From a virus (Duplodnaviria; Heunggongvirae; Uroviricota; Caudoviricetes), in the IMG/VR virus record IMGVR_UViG_2690316076_000005, positions 1 through 37,772 of that record: a stretch of 37,772 nt of DNA; one strand, written 5' to 3'. Numbering within the stretch: position 1 is the stretch's first letter; the number at the start of each line of letters is the position of its first letter. The notes under the pieces were generated by a model. It was not told where the DNA came from and did no database searches. It saw only the letters and a program-made list of their open reading frames with translations. This document shows, piece by piece, positions 21,631 through 36,523 of the stretch. The position numbers and the translations under genes were made by a program.

Positions 21631-21911
21631 TATTGCCTCAGATGATCAACCAGACGTGCAACGTTGCCTCTGACGGCCACCAGCACGGAAAGAAAAATAG
21701 TGTTTGCCACGATAATGGGCCATGAGGAATGGGGATAAATCCCACAGAGATAGGCCAACGGAACAGCACTGTATGTAACAGTAATCAGCCAGGCTAAACG
21801 TGAAACCCAAGGACGATGCCGCGAATCACCACGACGATAAAACATCAGAGTAATAACAACACAAGCACATAACAGCGCATTTATAGTTGCTGTCGGGTCA
21901 TTTAGCTCCAC
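21630..21911 (-). CDS. holin/antiholin-like membrane protein
   Basis: 93 aa, hydrophobic segments; GTG start with SD ggagg; between the holin and endolysin genes. Confidence 0.5.
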   Translation of the reverse strand: MELNDPTATINALLCACVVITLMFYRRGDSRHRPWVSRLAWLITVTYSAVPLAYLCGIYPHSSWPIIVANTIFLSVLVAVRGNVARLVDHLRQ

Positions 21912-22284
21912 CTGAACCTCCCCGGCGCGTTATGAGCGCCACCAGCGAGCCGATATCCTGATTATTCAGGAACGTCAGGATTTTAACGGCTAAAGCAGAG
22001 ACAATTACGGCACCAATAGCATCCAGAGGTTTATCACTGTATCCGGTCAAGTTCGCCAGCTTGGAGCCAACCAACCCAGAGCAAAGAATACCGGCAATAT
22101 ATGACACGATAAAATATGCCAGTCGGCGCGATGCACTCAGATCTGCTGCTGTTGCTATGTAGAATACAGCCCCTGCAAATGCGCCAAATACAACGCCGTA
22201 ATCAGTTCCGGTCAGCAGTCCATAAACACTGGCACCCGTCAGGGCACCACCAGCCAGCCCAGTACCGGAAATCGGATCGGACAT
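21898..22284 (-). CDS. holin
   Basis: 128 aa, Gly/Ala-rich hydrophobic helices; ATG with SD gaggggg; first gene of the lysis cassette. Confidence 0.6.
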   Translation of the reverse strand: MSDPISGTGLAGGALTGASVYGLLTGTDYGVVFGAFAGAVFYIATAADLSASRRLAYFIVSYIAGILCSGLVGSKLANLTGYSDKPLDAIGAVIVSALAVKILTFLNNQDIGSLVALITRRGGSGGAK

Positions 22285-22771: not shown

Positions 22772-23524
22772 TTATCTCGTCACTTTTCTTAATTGCGCCT
22801 CAGCATATGCTTCTTCCTGCCAGCACTTTGTCACCAGTTTATCAATGACATCTGCATATCCTTTGTACCACTGATAATCCGTCAGGTCTGGTACCAGCTT
22901 CTGGACATGATGCCGCGCCAGTGTGGTTGGTAAACGGCTAAACCGGTTTCCATTGCAACGCCCACAAATCTTATAAACAGGCATGCCATGAAGCCGGGTT
23001 CTTTTTTCATCCAGGACAATACCTTTGCCCTTACACCCTCTGCACGCTGTGCTGACTTCTCCCTTACCATGACAATGCTGACATAGTTCCTTCACCCACT
23101 CTTCCTTGATAACAGATTCCCCGTTTCTGGAGTGTTTCACCACTTCGCGCAATACATTATGAAATCCCGTACCTGCACAATGCTCACAGCGAGCCTTACT
23201 TGCCGCAGATCTGGAATAATCAGCAAAGGCAAAATTCACAAGGTAAGGAATGATCTGTAGCCGGGTTTCTTCACTCAATTTATTCAATGTCGGGTTATCC
23301 AGTGCCATCGCGTAATTGAGCAGACCTTCAATCGCAAACTGAGGATCCTGAACACCAACTTTTGCCAGGAATAAGGCAAACCCAAGCGGTGCTTTCGACT
23401 GCACCATCCCCTGCGCAGCCATCACATCCGTAATCGTTAAACCACCTGAGCCTGTCGCCGGTGCGTCATCGCTCAATTTTGGAGATTTTGGGGAGTAATA
23501 TTTTGGTAAGGCTTCAAGGTTCAT
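22772..23524 (-). CDS. Q-like late-gene antiterminator (QuuQ/YdfT-like)
   Basis: Start moved to the ATG with SD ggaga; 250 aa; four CxxCxGxG-type zinc-finger repeats (CEHCAGTG, CQHCHGKG, CRGCKGKG, CGRCNGNR); position between the early genes and the late promoter. Confidence 0.6.
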   Translation of the reverse strand: MNLEALPKYYSPKSPKLSDDAPATGSGGLTITDVMAAQGMVQSKAPLGFALFLAKVGVQDPQFAIEGLLNYAMALDNPTLNKLSEETRLQIIPYLVNFAFADYSRSAASKARCEHCAGTGFHNVLREVVKHSRNGESVIKEEWVKELCQHCHGKGEVSTACRGCKGKGIVLDEKRTRLHGMPVYKICGRCNGNRFSRLPTTLARHHVQKLVPDLTDYQWYKGYADVIDKLVTKCWQEEAYAEAQLRKVTR

Positions 23525-23537
23525 GCTCGTTCTCCAC

Positions 23538-24533
23538 TTACGCCAGTACGCCAATTGCCAGCGCACGATCGATAAAACGAAATATCAGCTCCAGCTGGGA
23601 GCCATACTTCTCTTCAAATGCCACGGTATCCGCATGCAGCTCGTCGTGATGCTTTCTGCACAAAGGCAACACAAAGAGGTCATGCGCTTTTGTTCCCATT
23701 CCACCCTGACCGTGACCTATCAGGTGGTGGGGATCATCAGCAGGCTTACCACAACATGCACACGGCTGTGTCTTAACCCAGCGCGTGTACTTTTCATTAA
23801 CCCAGCGGCGACGTTTTGGGCGTAACATAAAAGACTCCGGCGACTCCGGATCCACTTTCAGCGCCAGCACCTTTTTCGCTTTATCCTGGATAATGCTGGT
23901 GGCAGGAACCGAAGGCACAAGGTCACTCTCCCGGGTGACAGACGGCACAACAGGCTTCGGTAATCTCAGTGCCTTACGGGCTGCACTTTCCGGTAAGGCA
24001 TCCGCCAGATCATTACGAACCAGCCACCAGCACAGTTCCGGCATTGTCACAACGTGACTGTCATCAAAACCGAGATCCCGACGCACAACAGACAACACCC
24101 AGCGGGCACAGTTATCCGTTGCCATTGATTCCAGCCGTTCCGTGAATTGATCGCGCAGCTGGTTATCACAGTGCCAGCACAGACGGATTGCGCCCGGAGC
24201 GTGTCGCATTGTGGTCATGTTCTCGCTGTGCCAGTCGGAATGAGGCCACTGGCAGCCCTTTTCACGAAGTAACCAGCTTTCAAGACATTCCACGCCACCA
24301 GCACGACGGATCACTGCCTCATTGCGGAACACGGCCCGAACAGCAGGATCATCCGCCAGCGGTTGTGATGCCGCGGGAACGGCACCACTGGCGAAAGATG
24401 AATAACGTTCCGGCTCAGGCTCCAGCAGTACACGCCCCTGCATAAACAGGGGCATCAGCTCTGAACCTGGTCTGAACAATACGATCCCCATACGCGGGGC
24501 TATTTCAGGGGTCAGTAGTGCTCTCACGGTCAC
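23538..24533 (-). CDS. DUF968-like prophage protein with C-terminal Cys/His motif
   Basis: 331 aa; C-terminal CACCGKP...HHLIGHG...LCRKHHDELH; commonly found next to Q in lambdoid prophages; start could be the GTG or the internal ATG. Confidence 0.5.
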   Translation of the reverse strand: MTVRALLTPEIAPRMGIVLFRPGSELMPLFMQGRVLLEPEPERYSSFASGAVPAASQPLADDPAVRAVFRNEAVIRRAGGVECLESWLLREKGCQWPHSDWHSENMTTMRHAPGAIRLCWHCDNQLRDQFTERLESMATDNCARWVLSVVRRDLGFDDSHVVTMPELCWWLVRNDLADALPESAARKALRLPKPVVPSVTRESDLVPSVPATSIIQDKAKKVLALKVDPESPESFMLRPKRRRWVNEKYTRWVKTQPCACCGKPADDPHHLIGHGQGGMGTKAHDLFVLPLCRKHHDELHADTVAFEEKYGSQLELIFRFIDRALAIGVLA

Positions 24534-28557: not shown

Positions 28558-29105
28558 GCGTTAGTTTCTCCACAGTCACGACACGCCACGGCGCCCGGAG
28601 CTGCACACTCGCGGGCGTCACTACTTTCTGAAACGCAAAAGATTTTGTAGACCAGTGCTGCATGCTCCTGCAGCTTCGAAATTGAGAGGTACAGCTCATC
28701 GTTAATTGCTGTCTTCTCATGCGGTTCCACTACACCGTCTTCAATTGCTGAACGAATCTGTTTTGAATAACTGCCGATCTGTTCAATGACTTCCAGCAGG
28801 CGTTGGTTGATATCGGCGTTGTCCACATCCTCGACGTCAGGAAGAGACACAAAGACGCCATTTGCAGACTGCGCCACAGCGTCAGCAATGAAGTGAGTGC
28901 CACCAGCACGCTGTAAAACCATTGCCCATCCCAGCGGGAAAATCTGATCGCCATCTGCACGAAGGCGGTTGAATAAAGCGTTCTCTGTTACATCCAGCCA
29001 GTCAGCAGCTTCAGCGTAACCCCCAGGCAATGCCGCGATAGTTTTTCTGACAGCTTTCACGTACCACTCGGGTTGTTTTTCCACTTTCCAATGATGCTTA
29101 CCCAC
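28554..29105 (-). CDS. early regulatory protein in the cII position (possibly CP76/CII-like)
   Basis: 183 aa; GTG start with strong SD aggagg; sits between cro and the replication genes. Confidence 0.4.
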
Positions 29106-29358
29106 GGCTTACCTCCTGTTCCTGTGGTTTAAACCCATTCTGGTTTTGGCTAGATTGAAAACGTGCCGGATAAAGAATCTGCATTTCGCTGATTTCACCC
29201 TTAAAAAAATTGGCCAGACGTTCTGCAAGATCGATAGATGGAATTTGTTCCAGTCTTTCAATACGACTTAGCGTCGCTGGATTGACCTGAACGCCCGCAG
29301 CAACATGCTGCAAAGTAAATCCGTGCGCCTTACGCACATTCCGTAATGGTGATTGCAT
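29098..29358 (-). CDS. Cro-like HTH repressor
   Basis: 86 aa; helix-turn-helix GFTLQHVAAGVQVNPATLSRIERLE; divergent from cI. Confidence 0.8.
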   Translation of the reverse strand: MQSPLRNVRKAHGFTLQHVAAGVQVNPATLSRIERLEQIPSIDLAERLANFFKGEISEMQILYPARFQSSQNQNGFKPQEQEVSRG

Positions 29359-29455
29359 ATAACCTCCACATATTGCGTGATGAGCATATTATTTCACGCA
29401 AATATTTTGCGCAAGTTGATTTGCTTAACGCGCAATAAAGAAATGTAATAAACGC
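29359..29455. promoter_or_regulatory. divergent cI/cro promoter-operator region
   Basis: TTGCG/CGCAA half-sites at 29373, 29397, 29407 and a perfect TTGC-N6-CGCAA 15-mer at 29421-29435. Confidence 0.6.
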
Positions 29456-30148
29456 ATGAACATAGGAAATCGAGTCAGACAACTTCGCCAGGCGAAGAAC
29501 ATGAAAATCGCCGATCTCGCTGAAGCAATAGGAGTGGATGCGGCGAATATCTCGCGCCTCGAAACAGGTAAGCAGAAACAATTCACTGAACAAGCCCTGA
29601 GTAATATTGCCAGGAGCTTAGGTGTTGATATTGCTGATCTCTTTACCTCAGACCTCAAAAGTAATACTGTATGTAAAAACAGTATTAGTGAGGATGTTGC
29701 GCAGGTGAAGGATGTATTCCGTATTGAAATGCTGGATGTCAGTGCCAGTGCGGGAAATGGCCTTATCCAGGGCGGTGATGTCATTGATGTGATTCATGCC
29801 ATTGAATACAGAACTGATAATGCTGTATCGATGTTTGGTGGACGACCAGCAAATCACATTAAAGTTATCAACGTTCGTGGGGACAGTATGTGTCCAACCA
29901 TTGAGCCAGGAGATCTCATCTTCGTTGATATCAGTATCAATCAGTTTGATGGGGATGGTATATATGTATTTGGTTTTGATGATAAAATTTACGTCAAACG
30001 ACTGCAAATGATACCTGATAAACTGCTGGTAATTTCTGATAATCAGATTTACCGCGAATGGGGAATTACCAGCGAAAACGAACACCGGTTTATGGTCTTT
30101 GGAAAGGTCTTAATCAGTCAGTCACAGACCCTTAAGCGACACAATTAA
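29456..30148 (+). CDS. CI-type repressor (HTH plus S24 LexA-like autopeptidase domain)
   Basis: 230 aa; N-terminal HTH; C-terminal VRGDSMCPTIEPGDLIFVD and later K typical of S24 peptidases. Confidence 0.9.
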   Translation: MNIGNRVRQLRQAKNMKIADLAEAIGVDAANISRLETGKQKQFTEQALSNIARSLGVDIADLFTSDLKSNTVCKNSISEDVAQVKDVFRIEMLDVSASAGNGLIQGGDVIDVIHAIEYRTDNAVSMFGGRPANHIKVINVRGDSMCPTIEPGDLIFVDISINQFDGDGIYVFGFDDKIYVKRLQMIPDKLLVISDNQIYREWGITSENEHRFMVFGKVLISQSQTLKRHN

Positions 30149-30170
30149 CCCCCTACCTCAACATCAATTA

Positions 30171-30191
30171 GCCACCAGAAGGTGGCTTTTC
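30171..30191 (+). terminator. intrinsic terminator downstream of cI
   Basis: GCCACC-AGAA-GGTGGC followed by TTTTC. Confidence 0.7.
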
Positions 30192-30204: not shown

Positions 30205-30256
30205 TTGCACATCTCGCAATAAAACACTTGCATAATACGCAACTTCATTTTATCTT
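30205..30256 (+). promoter_or_regulatory. candidate OL/PL
   Basis: Two 15-mers TTGCACATCTCGCAA (30205-30219) and TTGCATAATACGCAA (30228-30242) share TTGC-N6-CGCAA with the OR site; possible -35 TTGCAT and -10 TATCTT (30251-30256) at 17-nt spacing. Confidence 0.45.
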
Positions 30257-30450
30257 TCTTTCCAGACCTACAAACAAGGTACTAACAAAATTTGGTTGTA
30301 ACACGGTGCATGTGTCGTAAGCAGTCAGTAAATGTCAAAAACGAACAAGCAGGACGCCCACGAAGTAGCCGCCTGGGGCATATGAAGTCAAGGATGATTC
30401 GTTGAGTCATGTAGTGCCACTAGGCACTCATGTTAAAGCAGGTGTATGAA

Positions 30451-30726
30451 ATGAAAGTCCAGATTTTAAACAATAACTGTGAAGTCGTTTGGTCATACGA
30501 CATAGCCGCCCCTGTAGATCAGAGCGGCGATAGCTGGGCCAATGGGAAACATCAGATTATGGCTGGAGTTGTATTCTCTTTACGCCGTGCTTTAGAACAG
30601 GCTGAAGTCTTTCCATCAGACCCTGAATGGAAATGGCCTTTTTCTATTTGTCCAAATTCGGAGAGTACATTTCAGAAAATTGGTCAGAAAGTCGCACTCG
30701 AAGAGCATCAGCCAACTGTTTCCTGA
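30451..30726 (+). CDS. hypothetical protein in the rex/N position
   Basis: 91 aa from the second ATG with SD aggtg; not arginine-rich, so not obviously N-like. Confidence 0.35.
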   Translation: MKVQILNNNCEVVWSYDIAAPVDQSGDSWANGKHQIMAGVVFSLRRALEQAEVFPSDPEWKWPFSICPNSESTFQKIGQKVALEEHQPTVS

Positions 30727-30889
30727 TTTTTTCAGGTAACTCGTCGGCATCGCAGAAACAACAACGCTCGATCATGTTGAAAGCCGATTCGTAGAACTGT
30801 TTCTGCTGAGTGTCGCTGACACAGGAAAAGAGCGACGTTACGATGATTTTATTAATTGCATTATCAAGTTCTTTTTCATCAAAAGTCAT
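30644..30889 (-). CDS. hypothetical protein, convergent and 3-prime-overlapping with the previous ORF
   Basis: 81 aa; ATG with SD-like aagga; overlaps 30451..30726 by 83 nt on the opposite strand, so at most one may be genuine. Confidence 0.3.
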   Translation of the reverse strand: MTFDEKELDNAINKIIVTSLFSCVSDTQQKQFYESAFNMIERCCFCDADELPEKIRKQLADALRVRLSDQFSEMYSPNLDK

Positions 30890-31142
30890 TTGATTTTCCT
30901 TTTATGTATACGGGCTTAAAAGGATACCACCGAGCCTGAAGTGGTGAAAAGACAGGCACATAACAGCTAAGTATTTTCAACCAGAGAGAATCCTTAGCGT
31001 TGTGGTGAATGCGGCTCAGCGCACGCGGGTTAAGGTTGAGGCTGACAGTCGACCTTCTGTGGATACCCACCCGCCTGGTGTGCAACCTTCGCCAGGCACC
31101 GGGAGGCACCCGGCACCACAACTTTATGCTGTGTGTAGTCCT

Positions 31143-31189
31143 GGCGGTACCAGCTTGTATCCTTGCTTCCGGCTGGTACCGTCCTTTTT
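31143..31189 (+). terminator. candidate intrinsic terminator (tL1-like) in the early-left leader
   Basis: 10-bp perfect stem cggtaccagc/gctggtaccg (12 bp with G-U), 17-nt loop, then C and TTTTT (31185-31189). Confidence 0.5.
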
Positions 31190-31278
31190 ACAAAACAGAG
31201 AAGAGCATCACCGGACGACGGGCTCATAACCCAATCCATCCGGGCGGCTGCCACCGCTGGTGTTCTTCTCTGTTTTGT
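31190..31278 (+). other. long-range inverted repeat / structured leader element
   Basis: caaaacagagaaga (31191-31204) pairs perfectly with tcttctctgttttg (31264-31277); encloses about 55 nt of GC-rich sequence; ends 36 nt before the SD of the first early-left gene. Confidence 0.45.
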
Positions 31279-31326
31279 GGAGAAACCAACCGACCTTGCA
31301 GGGTCGATATAATGAGGAGCAGCAAA

Positions 31327-31689
31327 ATGGCTAGCGAACGCAGTACTGATGTGCAGGCATTTATCGGGGAGCTGGACGGCGGCGTATTTGAAACCAAAAT
31401 CGGCGCAGTTCTCAGTGAAGTCGCTTCCGGTGTGATGAACACGAAAACCAAAGGTAAGGTCTCACTCAACCTGGAAATCGAACCATTTGATGAGAACCGT
31501 GTGAAAATCAAACACAAACTCTCATATGTTCGCCCGACTAACCGCGGGAAAATTTCCGAAGAAGACACCACCGAAACGCCGATGTATGTCAATCGCGGTG
31601 GTCGCCTGACTATTCTGCAGGAAGACCAGGGACAGTTACTGACTCTTGCCGGTGAACCTGACGGAAAACTCCGCGCAGCAGGTCGTTAA
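31327..31689 (+). CDS. YfdP-like early protein
   Basis: Start at the ATG with SD gaggag; the track's upstream extension from 31009 has junk-like composition; followed by YfdQ/YfdR-like genes. Confidence 0.5.
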   Translation: MASERSTDVQAFIGELDGGVFETKIGAVLSEVASGVMNTKTKGKVSLNLEIEPFDENRVKIKHKLSYVRPTNRGKISEEDTTETPMYVNRGGRLTILQEDQGQLLTLAGEPDGKLRAAGR

Positions 31690-31754
31690 TATCGTTTTTA
31701 ATTAACTGATTATTTATCTCATCACTGAATATCTTTATATAGTGAGGACTTATT

Positions 31755-32579
31755 ATGTCTCAGAACTTAGACGCAACCGCAATTAATCAAATCCATGCCC
31801 TTATTTCTGCTCAGGGTGTTAATGAAATTATCAGTAAGATTGGTGCCGATGCTGTGGCATTGCCTGAGCATTTCCGCATTCATGATCTGGAAAAATTTAA
31901 TTTAAATCGCTTCCGTTTCCGTGGTGCGCTTTCCACTGCCAGCATCGATGACTTTACCCGTTATTCTAAAGATCTTGCAGATGAAGGCACCCGCTGCTTT
32001 ATCGATGCTGATAATATGCGTGCCGTCAGTGTGCTTAACCTGGGTACTATTGATGAGCCAGGTCACGCAGATAACACCGCCACACTCAAACTGAAAAAGA
32101 CAGCACCGTTCTCTGCTCTGTTGTCTGTTAACGGCGAGCGTAACTCCCAGAAGTCACTAGCAGAATGGATTGAAGACTGGGCCGACTATCTTGTGGGCTT
32201 TGATGCTAATGGTGACGCTATTCAGGCAACAAAAGCGGCTGCGGCTGTCCGTAAAATCACGATTGAAGCAAACCAGACCTCTGATTTTGAAGATAATGAC
32301 TTCAGCGGCAAACGCTCCCTGATGGAGTCTGTCGAAGCGAAGACCAAAGACATTATGCCAGTGGCATTTGAATTTAAATGCGTTCCGTTTGAAGGTCTGA
32401 AAGAACGTCCGTTTAAATTACGCCTCAGTATTATCACTGGCGATCGTCCTGTACTGGTTCTGCGCATTATTCAGCTGGAGGCGGTGCAGGAAGAAATGGC
32501 TAACGAATTTCGTGATCTGCTTGTTGAGAAATTCAAGGACAGCAAAGTAGAAACCTTTATTGGTACTTTCACCGCCTGA
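31755..32579 (+). CDS. YfdQ-like protein (DUF2303)
   Basis: 274 aa; size and synteny with the HD-domain gene as in CPS-53 yfdQ-yfdR (memory). Confidence 0.55.
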
Positions 32580-32706
32580 TTTCATTACTGCAAATGCCCC
32601 TGCGGGGGCATTTATGGAAACGTAATTTACTCAATAATCGCCGGATGGTGAGGGATTCTTTTTGCCAGAATTCAGCGCGGTGCAGCGCATATACGTGGAG
32701 AACAAA

Positions 32707-33243
32707 ATGTCATTTATTAAAACTTTTTCCGGGAAGCATTTTTATTATGACAGGATAAATAAAGACGACATCGATATTAACGATATCGCGGTTTCCCTTT
32801 CAAATATCTGTCGCTTTGCCGGTCATCTTTCGCACTTCTACAGCGTCGCCCAGCATGCGGTGCTTTGCAGCCAGCTGGTGCCGCAGGAATTTGCTTTTGA
32901 AGCGTTAATGCATGATGCAACAGAAGCGTATTGCCAGGATATTCCCGCTCCACTGAAACGCCTTCTTCCTGACTATAAACGGATGGAAGAAAAAATAGAC
33001 GCCGTAATCCGTGAGAAATACGGGTTACCTCCTGTTATGAGCACGCCAGTGAAATATGCCGATCTCATTATGCTGGCAACCGAACGCCGTGATCTCGGGC
33101 TTGATGATGGTTCTTTCTGGCCTGTACTGGAAGGTATCCCGGCAACAGAGATGTTCAACGTGATTCCACTGTCACCAGGCCATGCCTACGGGATGTTTAT
33201 GGAACGTTTTAACGAGTTATCGGGGTTACGCAAATGCGCATGA
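32707..33243 (+). CDS. HD-domain phosphohydrolase (YfdR-like)
   Basis: Start at the internal ATG (MSFIKTFSGKHFYYD); HD motif ALMHDATEAY; 178 aa. Confidence 0.75.
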   Translation: MSFIKTFSGKHFYYDRINKDDIDINDIAVSLSNICRFAGHLSHFYSVAQHAVLCSQLVPQEFAFEALMHDATEAYCQDIPAPLKRLLPDYKRMEEKIDAVIREKYGLPPVMSTPVKYADLIMLATERRDLGLDDGSFWPVLEGIPATEMFNVIPLSPGHAYGMFMERFNELSGLRKCA

Positions 33244-33650
33244 ATGTTTTCGAAATGGAAGGGTTTCTTCGCGGGAAATGTGTACCGCGAGATCTGAAAG
33301 TGAACGAAACAAACGCTGAGTACCTGGTGCGTAAATTTGCTGAAGCTGAGGCCAAGTGCGCGGCGCTGGCAGTGGAGAATGCAGGAATAAAGTCTGCAAT
33401 TCCCCAACCACGGGATATTGAGGATGACAATGACAATATGGATGACGTATCTCTTGCTGAAGATTTCGGGTTCAATCATGCAATAGAACGGATGAGGAGA
33501 CGGATTCCTGAAACACCAGCCACCGACGCTTTCCTGGCTGAAGTACGGGCGCAGGGCGTGGAGATGTTTGCGGAGTGTGCATACACACTTGAACATCATG
33601 ATCACGCAGTAGCTTTTGCCGCCGAGCTACGTAAAGGAGGCAACCAGTGA
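33240..33650 (+). CDS. hypothetical early protein
   Basis: 136 aa from the ATG overlapping the upstream stop (ATGA). Confidence 0.45.
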   Translation: MNVFEMEGFLRGKCVPRDLKVNETNAEYLVRKFAEAEAKCAALAVENAGIKSAIPQPRDIEDDNDNMDDVSLAEDFGFNHAIERMRRRIPETPATDAFLAEVRAQGVEMFAECAYTLEHHDHAVAFAAELRKGGNQ

Positions 33651-34366
33651 GCAAGATTGATTATCAGGCACTGCGTGAAAAGGCAGAGAAAGCAACTAAA
33701 GGAAGCTACATCGTAGGGCATACATCTGTTAACCAGCACGGCAATTTAACAGGAGTTTTTGTTTGTCAAAAATGGAAAGGAGAACCCGGTGGTGTGATTG
33801 CGGAATGTCATGTTAACTGCCTGGTTGAAACAGATATTCAGGCTTATGCAAACGCTGAATTTATTGCTGCCTTTAATCCAAAGGTTGCTTTGGCACTACT
33901 GGATGAACGGGAAAGAAACCAGCAGTACATCAAACGCCGCGACCAGGAGAACGAGGATATTGCGCTAACGGTAGGGAAGCTGCGCGTTGAGCTTGAGGAA
34001 GCAAAATCAAAACTCAACGAGCAACGCGAGTATTACGAAGGTGTTATCTCGGATGGGGGTAAGCGTATTGCTGAACTGGAAAAACAATGCGCCGAATGGG
34101 AGCGAAAAGCATTAAGCAACTTTGAAGAGTGTGCTGCGATGGCTGAACGTATCGAAGAGATGAGTAAGCAAAGTTGCGAAGCCCGGGAGCGTGATTTATT
34201 TGAATCATGGGTAATGCATTCAATTTGTATTTCCAAATCGACGCTTGAAGGATTGCGCACCGAAACTGGATACCGTAATGCGACCTTATCAGGAACAGAC
34301 TTCAACCGCATGTGGGAACAATGGAAATCTATCCGCGCCGCAGGAATTCGCAAAAGGGAGATTTAA
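33647..34366 (+). CDS. Ea22-like coiled-coil early protein
   Basis: 239 aa; N-terminus MSKIDYQALREKAEKA and coiled-coil middle typical of Ead/Ea22-like prophage proteins. Confidence 0.5.
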   Translation: MSKIDYQALREKAEKATKGSYIVGHTSVNQHGNLTGVFVCQKWKGEPGGVIAECHVNCLVETDIQAYANAEFIAAFNPKVALALLDERERNQQYIKRRDQENEDIALTVGKLRVELEEAKSKLNEQREYYEGVISDGGKRIAELEKQCAEWERKALSNFEECAAMAERIEEMSKQSCEARERDLFESWVMHSICISKSTLEGLRTETGYRNATLSGTDFNRMWEQWKSIRAAGIRKREI

Positions 34367-34397
34367 TAATCATGATGTACCGTAAAGAGGAAGCCAA

Positions 34398-34889
34398 ATG
34401 ACAGCACTCAACAAACAGGTGCTGCTGAGCACCGATAAACACGCAAATCAGCACCGACTTTCTCGCCTTACCATGGAAGTGCATAGCGATGAGCTTCGTA
34501 TTATAGCGTCAGCAGTAGAGAGCTATACCGACGAGTTGATAGCAGCGCTGGAAGCCGCAGAGAAGCGCAACGCAAAATTACAAAGCGAGAATGCATACAT
34601 CCGAAACCGGTTCAAAGAACTGGACCTGTTAATCGGGAAAAACATTCTGGTCATGCAGGCTGCGATTATCGAATGGCAGGCAACTGGCGACGCTAAAAGC
34701 GGACTGGCATGGATTTATAACACACTGTTTGGCCCTGGCGAATTGCCGGACGAATCTGAGAAAGATGCTCAGGCCTACTTTAATCGCAAATATGCACCGA
34801 TTGACGAAAAGCTTATGGCGCTTCACAAGTGGTTTTGGGAACAAAGTGAAGCCGAGCGCGCCGCTGGCATTCGCATAAAAGGAGAGTGA
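34398..34889 (+). CDS. Ea22-like / hypothetical coiled-coil protein
   Basis: 163 aa; N-terminus MTALNKQ; C-terminal AAGIRIKGE resembles the AAGIRKREI end of the previous gene. Confidence 0.45.
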   Translation: MTALNKQVLLSTDKHANQHRLSRLTMEVHSDELRIIASAVESYTDELIAALEAAEKRNAKLQSENAYIRNRFKELDLLIGKNILVMQAAIIEWQATGDAKSGLAWIYNTLFGPGELPDESEKDAQAYFNRKYAPIDEKLMALHKWFWEQSEAERAAGIRIKGE

Positions 34890-34890
34890 T

Positions 34891-35082
34891 ATGAACGGAC
34901 AAATCTCAATTGTTCGACCGGGAGCATGTGACGATCGCGAGATACGAATGATTATTCGTCTGGCGATGGGGAAAACAATAACAGCTCTCATTACTCCAGA
35001 AAATCTCGCATTAGCTTTAACCGGAAAGTCAGACCTGCCAGTAGAGCTAAAGCTGCGAAATGTTGAGATTAAGGTGAAATAG
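34891..35082 (+). CDS. hypothetical small protein
   Basis: 63 aa, tightly packed in the operon. Confidence 0.4.
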   Translation: MNGQISIVRPGACDDREIRMIIRLAMGKTITALITPENLALALTGKSDLPVELKLRNVEIKVK

Positions 35083-35084
35083 CT

Positions 35085-35633
35085 ATGACCACTATTACCA
35101 AAGAACGTATCGAATTATTCATTAAAAATCCGCTTGAAAACGGGCTTACTCGTGGCGAACAAATGGAACTGGCACGAATTGCACTGGCATCACTGGGAGC
35201 AGAACCTGTAAGCCAAACTTACAACTTGCCAGAATTAATCGAAGGCATGGAGGTTTCCATTGATGTAAGCACTTGTGATGCGGATTTAGGTAATCGCTAT
35301 TTCGGTACCGTCACCGAGGCGTTAGAACTTGATACTGCCAAGAATGGTTACATCCTCCTAGTTCAGGACGCAGAGCCAAACTTCGATGTAAATGGCAACT
35401 CTCCGGGAACTCCGGATAGTTGGATAAGCTGTAGTGATCGAATGCCTGAAAAGGGCCAGAACGTGCTTATTTCGGTGAATTTCGATAGCTCTCAGGTTGA
35501 ACCGCTAATATGCTCCGCACGCTATACCGGAAGCACCTTTCGGCGCGGAGATGCAACGATTAAGCCGGGTAATGGTATTGAGCAAGCAACTCACTGGATG
35601 CCGCTACCGGAACCGCCGCTGGAGGTGAAGTGA
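35085..35633 (+). CDS. DUF551-domain protein
   Basis: C-terminal THWMPLPEPP motif typical of DUF551. Confidence 0.6.
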   Translation: MTTITKERIELFIKNPLENGLTRGEQMELARIALASLGAEPVSQTYNLPELIEGMEVSIDVSTCDADLGNRYFGTVTEALELDTAKNGYILLVQDAEPNFDVNGNSPGTPDSWISCSDRMPEKGQNVLISVNFDSSQVEPLICSARYTGSTFRRGDATIKPGNGIEQATHWMPLPEPPLEVK

Positions 35634-36205
35634 TGAACAACTTAATGATCGACCTTGAGACGATGGGGAAAAATAAGGATGCACCGATCGTTTCCATTGG
35701 CGCGGTGTTCTTCACTCCAGAAATCGGAGACATCGGACAAGAATTCTATACGGTTGTTAGCCTGGAAAGTGCTATGGAGCAAGGAGCTACACCTGACGGC
35801 GATACCATCCTGTGGTGGTTGAAACAAAGCCCTGAAGCACGAGCTGCAATCTGTATTGATGATACTTTGTCGATCAGCGATGCTCTCTCAGAACTAAATC
35901 ATTTCATTAACCGGCACGCAGACAATACGAAATATTTAAAAGTCTGGGGTAACGGAGCCACCTTCGACAACGTAATTTTACGTGGAGCTTATGAGCGAGC
36001 AGGACAAATCTGCCCGTGGGCATACTGGAATGACCACGATGTACGCACGATCGTTACGCTTGGGCGTTCCATCGGATTCGACCCCAAAATGGACATGCCT
36101 TTCGATGGCGAACGGCACAACGCCCTGGCTGATGCCCGTCATCAGGCAAAATATGTTTCCGCTATCTGGCAGAAATTAATTCCTGCCACCAGCACAGAAT
36201 TATGA
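35630..36205 (+). CDS. 3-prime to 5-prime exonuclease (DEDDh-like)
   Basis: MIDLETMG (Asp/Glu motif I) and HNALADARH (motif III) typical of DnaQ-like prophage exonucleases. Confidence 0.75.
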   Translation: MMNNLMIDLETMGKNKDAPIVSIGAVFFTPEIGDIGQEFYTVVSLESAMEQGATPDGDTILWWLKQSPEARAAICIDDTLSISDALSELNHFINRHADNTKYLKVWGNGATFDNVILRGAYERAGQICPWAYWNDHDVRTIVTLGRSIGFDPKMDMPFDGERHNALADARHQAKYVSAIWQKLIPATSTEL

Positions 36206-36241
36206 TTTTCCCGGGTGCAGCCGGTTTTGATGGAGAAAATT

Positions 36242-36523
36242 ATGAACACCTTGTTTTTACTGATGGCTGAATTCAATACCCCAAACATTGAACTCTCAGC
36301 AGTTAGCCAAAAGTACTTTGGTATGAGTCCAGCCACGGCAGAAGCAAAAGCAAACGCTTGTAAGTTGCCCGTTCCAACATATCGCATCGGCACATCACAA
36401 AAAGCAAAACGTTGCATCAATATTCAGGATCTTGCGGAATACATAGACAAAAGGCGAGAAGAAGGACGTATCGAGTGGGAACAGGTCAGAACAGTCAAAC
36501 AGAAGGGCAAAGAAAATCACTAA
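36242..36523 (+). CDS. PrtN-like / excisionase-like small DNA-binding protein
   Basis: Start at the ATG with SD ggaga; MNTLFLLMAEFNTPNIELSAVSQKYFGM resembles the PrtN family; last gene of the early-left operon. Confidence 0.5.
   Translation: MNTLFLLMAEFNTPNIELSAVSQKYFGMSPATAEAKANACKLPVPTYRIGTSQKAKRCINIQDLAEYIDKRREEGRIEWEQVRTVKQKGKENH

Follow-up and report, generated by a model that had tools for sequence, protein, structure and literature searches.

The leader upstream of yfdP

The DNA analysed here (the window, 37,772 nucleotides (nt) long) is the whole of IMG/VR virus record IMGVR_UViG_2690316076_000005, assigned to the Caudoviricetes, which by its sequence is an SfV/CPS-53-like lambdoid prophage. 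Upstream of yfdP, the first conserved gene of its early-left operon, lies an interval (30890-31326) that an earlier note, made from the letters alone, had described as a structured non-coding leader of about 430 bp. The leader is real, conserved and non-coding; it is partly a divergent, new branch of a known family of small RNAs (sRNAs), STnc100, and partly a hairpin motif that has not been described before. It does precede yfdP, whereas its supposed first ~45 nt (30890-30933) belong to the upstream region of a minus-strand open reading frame (ORF) of 81 amino acids (aa), and it does not stand directly behind the early-left promoter, as a 98-aa ORF intervenes after the operator-like repeats. 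The features of the leader, all on the plus strand, are as follows.

30934-30957: upstream hairpin HpA, GCCUG-AAGUGGUGAAAAGA-CAGGC, found near the leader start in phiES15, LLS, Eeyore, F1055, Kp4866-6 and locus L135
30966-30998: 5' hairpin of the STnc100-like RNA (inverted repeat I2; Rfam model positions 1-30; minimum free energy (MFE) fold)
30999-31122: STnc100-family core (RF02076 match, covariation, partner test)
30999-31007/31114-31122: helix P1 of the core
31025-31030/31069-31074: helix P3, GCGGGU/ACCCGC
31032-31038 with 31083-31089: pseudoknot of strands a and a', a' lying within the loop of hairpin b/b'
31075-31080/31090-31095: hairpin b/b'
31099-31113: hairpin P6, CCGGG-AGGCA-CCCGG
31127-31140: single-stranded tail UGCUGUGUGUAGUC between core and terminator
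31143-31189: rho-independent terminator, 12-bp stem with one bulge, 17-nt loop and U5
31190-31278: three-way-junction leader RNA ('hairpin 2'), here called the Y-shaped element (covariation)
31190-31209/31259-31278: its basal 20-bp stem, which holds a 14-bp repeat
31211-31215/31239-31243: its arm H2b, CCGGA/UCCGG
31217-31237: its invariant 21-nt loop, GACGGGCUCAUAACCCAAUCC
31244-31247/31254-31257: its variable arm H2c
31291-31306: small hairpin CGACC-UUGCAG-GGUCG before the yfdP ribosome-binding site (MFE fold)
31314-31319: Shine-Dalgarno (SD) sequence GAGGAG of yfdP, with the ATG at 31327
31327-31689: yfdP (phrog_204 match; the homologue is named yfdP in RefSeq), followed by yfdQ and yfdR

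The claim of a structured leader holds for both halves, which fold far better than shuffled sequences: 30966-31192 reaches -96.6 kcal/mol (z = -4.87) and 31186-31326 reaches -58.6 kcal/mol (z = -5.83), with none of 200 dinucleotide shuffles as good in either case. A BLAST search with 30940-31330 returns SfV, SfII, SfIV and many E. coli prophages at 97-98% identity and the Salmonella phage ST64B at 77% identity. Against ST64B, substitutions are spread flatly over the codon positions in every ORF frame (14/14/18, 24/26/26, 13/17/13, 26/23/21 and 17/19/16), insertions and deletions of 1, 2 and 20 nt break the frame in every ORF that spans the first half, and Pfam gives no match for the ORFs in the interval. 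No ORF here thus carries a coding signature in that comparison, as the earlier note had supposed.

A divergent STnc100 RNA in the first half

The note had allowed that the interval could encode a small RNA, and its first half is indeed, on sequence and structure, a divergent branch of the STnc100 family. In a permissive Rfam scan, STnc100 (RF02076) aligns to 30969-31192 over its full length (model 1-206 of 206; 42.4 bits, E 1.8e-7). As this score lies under the gathering score of 47 bits, a default scan comes out empty, and the whole window has no match at Rfam gathering thresholds. The window sequence fits every helix of the family consensus as well as the pseudoknot, and the 20-nt motif of the conserved hairpin, CACCGGGAGGCACCCGGCACCA, occurs once in the window, with none expected by chance.

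With the invariant 20-mer CCGGGAGGCACCCGGCACCA as a probe, about 120 copies were collected from viral contigs and reduced to 33 diverse representatives. Among these, 95% of the cells expected to pair do so, and 92 cells show double changes against 26 +/- 5 after shuffling (0 of 500 as high), with about 43% paired in slid controls. Both RNAalifold and the pair counts bear out P1, P2, a short P3, hairpin b/b' and P6. The last of these is invariant in the 33-copy set by construction, the set being selected with the probe, and covaries in LLS-type relatives, where it reads GGUGG-AGGCA-CCACC and keeps the AGGCA loop. MAFFT misaligned the variable middle of the core, so the pseudoknot was tested by permuting partners instead of by counting pairs. 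Strand a sits at a fixed place after P2 and is complementary to the b/b' loop, with sequences that differ between copies (AAGGUUG/CAACCUU in the window; CCAGUC/GACUGG, CUGGUGU/ACACCGG and UAUCAGCGC/GUGCUGAUA elsewhere); own partners form 6.7 bp on average and swapped partners 4.5 bp, and none of 5000 permutations was as high. The core is therefore a pseudoknotted domain of five helices and about 124 nt.

Between the core and the terminator, the tail UGCUGUGUGUAGUC is kept in ST64B, phiES15, LLS, Eeyore, F1055, Kp4866-6 and many genome loci, even where the core interior differs, and is absent in mEp460; it may serve as a seed or an Hfq site. HpA, ahead of the core, never varies in its stem and for this reason offers no evidence from covariation; in LLS it lies, by reading, ~20 nt past a TTGACC-17-TAGATT promoter. 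Its loop repeats the GUGGUGAA of P1, and in L135 the core is seemingly deleted between these two repeats.

STnc100 copies fall into two subtypes. Most belong to subtype A (73-131 bits against RF02076), and many of these have a -35/-10 pair ending 7 nt before P1 together with their own terminator. They neighbour Q or tRNA genes, with a holin, endolysin or nanS-p gene lying closely downstream; HK639 also carries a copy between Q and holin. Subtype B (35-42 bits) includes the window copy at 42.4 bits and those of phiES15, L094 and ST64B at 35-41 bits. Its P2/P3 region is re-wired, and P3 covaries (GCGGGG/CCCCGU in phiES15, GCGGAA/UUCCGC in L018). In SfV, ST64B, phiES15 and L094, subtype-B copies lie past the repressor gene and ahead of the first conserved gene of the early-left operon, and a leader element occupies the equivalent place in mEp460, LLS and Eeyore. 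The last three, with F1055 and Kp4866-6, have still more divergent cores at this place, which keep the P1 strands GUUGUGG...CCACAAC and give no Rfam match. In mEp460 no plus-strand ORF separates the same block of left-operator-like repeats from the leader, which comes directly behind it.

Copies of STnc100 are expressed, Northern-verified and Hfq-associated sRNAs in lysogens (PMC5331693; PMC12711010). Strain EDL933 has 11 of them (PMC5331693), the relative EcOnc27 is located downstream of stx2B (PMC12711010), and PasD, for which RIL-seq targets are reported, is a relative of the family (bioRxiv 10.64898/2026.05.13.724894). Since relatives accumulate as discrete RNAs in lysogens (PMC5331693), their terminators work. 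Two copies stand in tandem orientation, 270-950 nt apart, in eight viral contigs (L013, L016, L024, L028, L042, L060, L081 and L087), and in L010 a copy lies directly behind three tRNA genes.

The terminator and the transcription of the leader

The terminator hairpin with its U5 at 31143-31189, already seen in the earlier note, is present by direct reading and by repeat search. Its stem, CGGTACCAGC (31145-31154) with GCTGGTACCG (31172-31181), has 10 perfect bp, or 12 bp across a 1-nt bulge (31143-31154/31172-31184), and the U-tract occupies 31185-31189; our terminator scan missed it because the loop limit of that scan is 8 nt. The stem differs yet pairs in ST64B (GUCGGCGUC/GACGCCGAC, with an enlarged top) and in phiES15, the U-tract and position being kept. 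Across 133 distinct contexts of the Y-shaped hairpin, a U-tract lies directly upstream in 118 and the 3' strand of P1 in 102, so that the order core, terminator, Y-shaped element, first gene recurs in most of them. The terminator scan of 31327-36500 found no further plus-strand candidate of comparable quality, and the terminator at 31143-31189 is then the only one that has to be passed. Attenuation at this site is plausible.

On the plus strand of 30890-30998, a promoter scan found no promoter-like site at 9/12 or better, and the best candidate by eye, CTGAAG-17-CATAAC, lacks the T at position 6 of the -10 hexamer. Searching 30890-30965 and 31190-31320 by eye gave nothing convincing. The TATAAT at 31308-31313 was discarded as a promoter, having no -35 partner and a start that would fall inside the SD sequence. 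Two alternative pairings were likewise rejected: that of b' (CGCCAGG) with the first 7 nt of the terminator arm (CCUGGCG) as an antiterminator, whose complementarity is not kept in ST64B or phiES15 and is put down to chance, and that of UGCUGUGUGU with the A/C-rich left arm of hairpin 2, which gives 7 bp in many relatives and only 3 bp in the window.

The Y-shaped element and its invariant loop

The 14-bp inverted repeat that the earlier note had reported (31191-31204 with 31264-31277) is perfect, as direct reading and repeat search agree, and extends to 25-nt arms at 88% (31190-31214/31254-31278; repeat search). It is part of a Y-shaped element that is not in Rfam (no match down to E = 10) and has not been described before. 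In 22 diverse sequences, 94.6% of cells are paired and 30 show double changes, against 8.5 +/- 2 after shuffling (0 of 500), with 34-52% paired in slid controls; clear base swaps occur, among them C-G to G-C, which splits the set 13 to 9. An RNA read from the plus strand is favoured by the recurrent G-U pairs, which on the opposite strand would turn into A-C mismatches. The check for covariation across relatives that the note had called for thus finds the core, the pseudoknot, the terminator stem and the Y-shaped element all kept as structure.

More than 12 genera of Enterobacterales have the element, in conserved form, ahead of yfdP. The note had taken terminator and long inverted repeat as one element, and this did not hold up, since the modules are separable: by BLAST, mEp460, cdtI and Stx2c phages share the second half only, first and second halves being shared separately among phages, and a Mixta prophage (L138) has a TTGATT-18-TATAGT promoter and palindromic operators directly before the Y-shaped hairpin, with neither STnc100 nor terminator. 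L135 keeps terminator and Y-shaped hairpin and has lost the core. In view of L138 and L135, what is constant in yfdP-type leaders is the Y-shaped element, to which the sRNA and its terminator are an add-on module. At the place of the small hairpin (31291-31306), relatives have GGCGG-UGGCA(G/A)-CCGCC, so here too structure is kept while sequence has changed. From the 3' edge of the Y-shaped hairpin runs a short ORF (31277-31312; GUG-GAG-AAA, 'MEK...'), which in relatives opens with AUG-GAG-AAG and stops a few bases beyond the start codon of yfdP. As a conserved peptide it was rejected, for its sequence shifts with the small hairpin and the hairpin itself is kept; the GGAGAA motif is conserved and the encoded peptide is not.

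Exact matches to the 21-nt loop occur in 26 species genomes, mostly Enterobacterales from more than 12 genera, in over 120 viral contigs and in over 120 metagenome contigs, and variants differ by single bases only. The stems that close it covary (CCGGG/CCCGG, CCAGG/CCUGG, CCUGAU/AUCAGG, CUGUCU/GGGCAG and CUCCAAUC/GAUUGGAG). In three loci (L146, L156 and L274) the loop is also found in late-operon leaders, between Q or tRNA genes and holin; it was seen as well in a metagenome-assembled genome labelled Acidobacteriaceae, and further occurrences are L145 and L357.

The centre of the loop (31219-31232, CGGGCUCAUAACCC) is identical at 14 of 14 positions to nt 28-41 of E. coli tRNA-fMet in a comparison with metZ. 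The shared nucleotides comprise the three G-C pairs and the CUCAUAA anticodon loop of that tRNA, and by our estimate a 14-mer would agree exactly with some tRNA anticodon arm by chance with a probability of ~5e-6. ARAGORN finds no tRNA gene in the window, and there is no Rfam tRNA match. A weaker alternative reading of the loop is a resemblance to boxA: GCUCAUAA is one position off GCUCUUAA, the boxA of lambda nutL (7 of 8 positions). This boxA-like string, recognised by reading, is the one lambda-type nut feature here; no conserved boxB was seen, and PHROG and Pfam searches recognised no N-like protein among the neighbouring ORFs.

Genetic setting

The region between the immunity genes and the leader contains the following features.

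29098-29358, minus strand: cro-like gene
29421-29435: third operator-like repeat TTGC-N7-GCAA, between cro and the repressor gene
29456-30148, plus strand: S24/LexA-type repressor gene
30170-30187: bidirectional terminator
30205-30219 and 30228-30242, plus strand: operator-like repeats TTGC-N7-GCAA, resembling the left operator (OL) (pattern search of the window)
30430-30726, plus strand: 98-aa ORF, phrog_3195
30644-30889, minus strand: convergent 81-aa ORF, phrog_3311

The pattern TTGC-N7-GCAA has five matches in the window, three of which (29421, 30205 and 30228) fall within the immunity region, where they flank the repressor gene on both sides. The pair at 30205 and 30228, past the cI terminator, probably marks OL and a left promoter (PL), which would be active there; no convincing -35/-10 pair was found at 30205-30242. 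The 3' ends of the 98-aa and 81-aa ORFs share 83 nt; both ORFs match PHROGs of unknown function only, with no Pfam match. The ~525 nt that hold them (30400-30925) are extra in the window relative to mEp460 and Eeyore, and look, from this comparison, like a moron splitting the PL leader.

On the minus strand, a Q-like antiterminator gene (phrog_127, 22772-23566) is followed by a small ORF and a holin gene (21898-22284), and the late leader behind it holds no STnc100 copy, unlike that of many lambdoid phages. C4 antisense RNA and isrK, both above the gathering score, are found in the early-right regions of mEp460 (L004 1323-1511) and ST64B (L008 409-597), and neither occurs in the window. In CPS-53 of E. 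coli K-12 (L001 9247-9605), the leader before yfdP is replaced or deleted except for its last ~25 nt, and K-12 data sets consequently say nothing on the element.

A proposed working of the leader

We give roughly a 60% chance to the reading that the interval serves the early-left (yfdP...) operon of an SfV/ST64B/mEp460-type lambdoid prophage as a conserved plus-strand RNA leader, built of stacked modules that work as outlined below. This builds on what is demonstrated: the anatomy of the leader, its conservation as RNA and the homology of its first half to an sRNA family whose members are expressed in lysogens and terminated there. Module 1 (30966-31140) is a divergent member of the STnc100/PasD group, with a five-helix pseudoknotted domain closed by P1 and a conserved tail; module 2 (31143-31189) is the intrinsic terminator of the module 1 RNA; and module 3 (31190-31278, with the hairpin at 31291-31306) is a separate element of the 5' untranslated region, ~50 nt before the yfdP start. 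With no promoter of its own, the leader would be transcribed from a repressor-controlled, PL-like promoter ~700 nt upstream, and the terminator would act as an attenuator that splits transcripts between the sRNA and a read-through early-left mRNA. Transcripts stopped at this point would yield a discrete STnc100-like sRNA of ~190-225 nt, which by analogy with its relatives may act in trans with Hfq, and those that read through would bring the Y-shaped element into the yfdP mRNA. The long stem of this element is likely a substrate for RNase III, whose cleavage would sever the sRNA from the mRNA and/or set the translation of yfdP, for which the lambda N and metY-nusA leaders offer an analogy.

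Several observations count against this proposal. The 98-aa ORF, the convergent 81-aa ORF and an AT-rich terminator-like hairpin (an annotated terminator in SfV) lie between the OL-like site and the leader, so that transcription from PL might stop short of it and a further promoter might have escaped recognition. Genes that the phage needs (recombination functions; xis/int in SfV) lie behind a strong terminator, which demands read-through, and no mechanism for this was recognised. The window copy scores below the gathering threshold of its family, and discrete Hfq-associated expression is known for other STnc100 copies only, none of them subtype B. The suggested role of the tail in trans is drawn from its conservation, and that of RNase III from the length and perfection of the stem. 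Finally, one pair of the basal stem (alignment columns 18-111) is unpaired in 19 of the 22 relatives.

Other explanations

Of the other readings, the one that survives best makes the Y-shaped hairpin the functional heart of the leader, either as a boxA/nut-like site that loads host Nus factors for protection against Rho, or as a mimic of the initiator-tRNA anticodon arm that engages a factor recognising tRNA-fMet. We hold this to be possible and rather doubtful. The loop is invariant across genera inside a covarying closing stem, it has 14 nt in common with the tRNA-fMet anticodon stem-loop, and its presence in the late leaders before holin places it at sites where antitermination signals act. 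The inner GGG/CCC pairs, however, never vary, which leaves the mini-stem unproven, and variants at positions 37/38 (CAUUA, CAUUC) do occur; the match to boxA reaches just 7 of 8 positions, and in the literature searched no such motif is described and no factor for it is known.

Somewhat less likely, the first half could be an autonomous 'moron' sRNA gene that has an unrecognised promoter in 30890-30965, is expressed in the lysogen and plays no role in cis, yfdP being expressed from elsewhere. Most family members are such self-contained units of promoter, RNA and terminator expressed in lysogens, the segment is a mosaic with its halves shared separately, and the terminator-like hairpin annotated in SfV after the 98-aa ORF could insulate the leader from PL. 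The promoter scan of 30890-30998 nevertheless came up empty, no promoter is apparent by reading between the terminator and yfdP, and mEp460, LLS and Eeyore have the homologous element within an uninterrupted leader behind the operator/promoter block.

A bolder version of the mimic idea is less probable again: in the leaders of early-left and lysis operons, the loop could be a functional mimic of the initiator-tRNA anticodon arm. Its target might be the 30S P site or IF3, where it would serve in cis to mark a start site or as a standby device, or MetRS, or else an anticodon nuclease like VapC, for which it would be a decoy or sensor. On this view the STnc100 core, for its part, would not be a plain base-pairing sRNA and would instead form a pseudoknot domain that binds a ligand or a protein.

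Processive antitermination of the put type, which the earlier note had raised as an HK022-like possibility, is improbable. In this reading the core would bind the RNA polymerase that transcribes it and take it past the adjacent terminator and along the remaining early-left operon, in place of N. The core stands where nutL or putL would, downstream of PL and before the first conserved gene of the early-left operon; a terminator stands between promoter and needed genes, and no N-like protein was recognised, the 98-aa and 81-aa ORFs included. It also speaks for the idea that the HK639 put-like RNA, which has been studied experimentally, is by its annotation unrelated in sequence to HK022 put, so that such elements need not look alike. 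Scanned with the STnc100 model, however, neither the immunity region of HK022 nor the PL leader of HK639 gives a match at E up to 10; direct reading of the HK639 putL-like sequence shows no motif in common with the leader; and the fold is a five-helix pseudoknotted domain of ~124 nt instead of the two stems of put (stem I and stem II), a compact element in HK022. Relatives with strong promoters of their own stand directly upstream of holin or endolysin genes, where constitutive antitermination would be lethal, L135 keeps terminator and Y-shaped element without the core, and with no other strong plus-strand terminators in the operon processivity is not obviously needed. Relatives, moreover, accumulate as terminated RNAs in lysogens (PMC5331693). 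A put-like role is thus not supported: it fails on every testable feature of membership and is hard to square with the subtype-A copies before holin genes.

A protein-coding gene within the interval is extremely improbable: a frameshifted 'hypothetical protein' annotated by RefSeq (PGAP) as a pseudo-coding sequence at the window-equivalent of ~31002-31312, and a match of phrog_3651 to the minus-strand ORF 31030-31254 (E 2.8e-48), have to be set against the flat codon positions, frame-breaking indels and missing Pfam matches reported above, a phrog_3651 profile that would run on antisense into yfdP, and a core that varies across the family by compensatory changes and indels of many lengths, and both are probably spurious ORFs or families drawn over a structured RNA.

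Significance

E. coli, Shigella and Salmonella commonly harbour phages of the SfV/ST64B/mEp460/e14 type, which bring genes for serotype conversion and virulence and lack a recognisable N. The early-left leader of such phages now has a concrete map that names an sRNA, a putative attenuator and a Y-shaped element. A pseudoknot with covariation support is added to the STnc100 family structure, and a whole branch of that family turns out to be overlooked by threshold-based annotation. A very widely conserved, previously undescribed hairpin is defined, whose loop copies the initiator-tRNA anticodon arm; if it is a true mimic of tRNA-fMet, it would be a new class of phage cis-regulatory RNA.

Comparison with known systems

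The closest known relatives are STnc100, PasD and EcOnc27, which share with the window copy P1 (GUGGUG/CACCAC), the J1 AAU, P6 (CCGGG-AGGCA-CCCGG), b/b' with the pseudoknot, a trailing intrinsic terminator and alignment over the full length. The window copy differs in having GCGGC...GCGGGU pairing with ACCCGC in place of a CCCCC/GGGG hairpin, in its score below threshold, its extra 5' hairpin and its lack of an adjacent sigma-70 promoter, and in lying in an early-left leader and not upstream of lysis genes. With HK022 putL/putR (stem II of putL is mentioned in PMC9378689) and the HK639 putL-like element, the leader shares its promoter-proximal place ahead of the early-left genes, its nature as a structured RNA and the background of a lambdoid phage without recognisable N; it is unlike them in sequence and at the level of models, in its five helices and pseudoknot, and in the terminator that follows immediately and is functional in relatives.

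Lambda nutL with the RNase III hairpin of the N leader, reportedly described by Kameyama et al. in 1991, shows the same order of promoter, RNA signal, long hairpin and first-gene ribosome-binding site, and a boxA-like 8-mer occurs in the loop of the Y-shaped element; the window differs in having neither boxB nor an N protein and in its three-way junction with an invariant 21-nt loop, and RNase III cleavage is here a prediction. DicF of the Qin prophage was considered as a relative by descent and rejected, as 31130-31184 scores 18.3 bits (E 0.54) against a gathering score of 48 for RF00039. It is alike in kind, an sRNA embedded in a repressor-controlled prophage operon of early-left type (dicB) and ended by a terminator, and the stem strand UGGCGGUACCAG of tail plus terminator resembles the DicF UGGCGGUAUCAG.

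Two host leaders, finally, bear on the loop. The thrS operator is an mRNA leader with a mimic of a tRNA anticodon arm, and the metY-nusA-infB leader contains a tRNA-fMet gene, terminators and RNase III sites. The window differs in copying only 14 nt of tRNA-fMet and has a candidate mimic; as in these systems, an anticodon stem-loop sequence is displayed in an mRNA leader, and the metY order of RNA gene, terminator, processing hairpin and mRNA is the one found upstream of yfdP.

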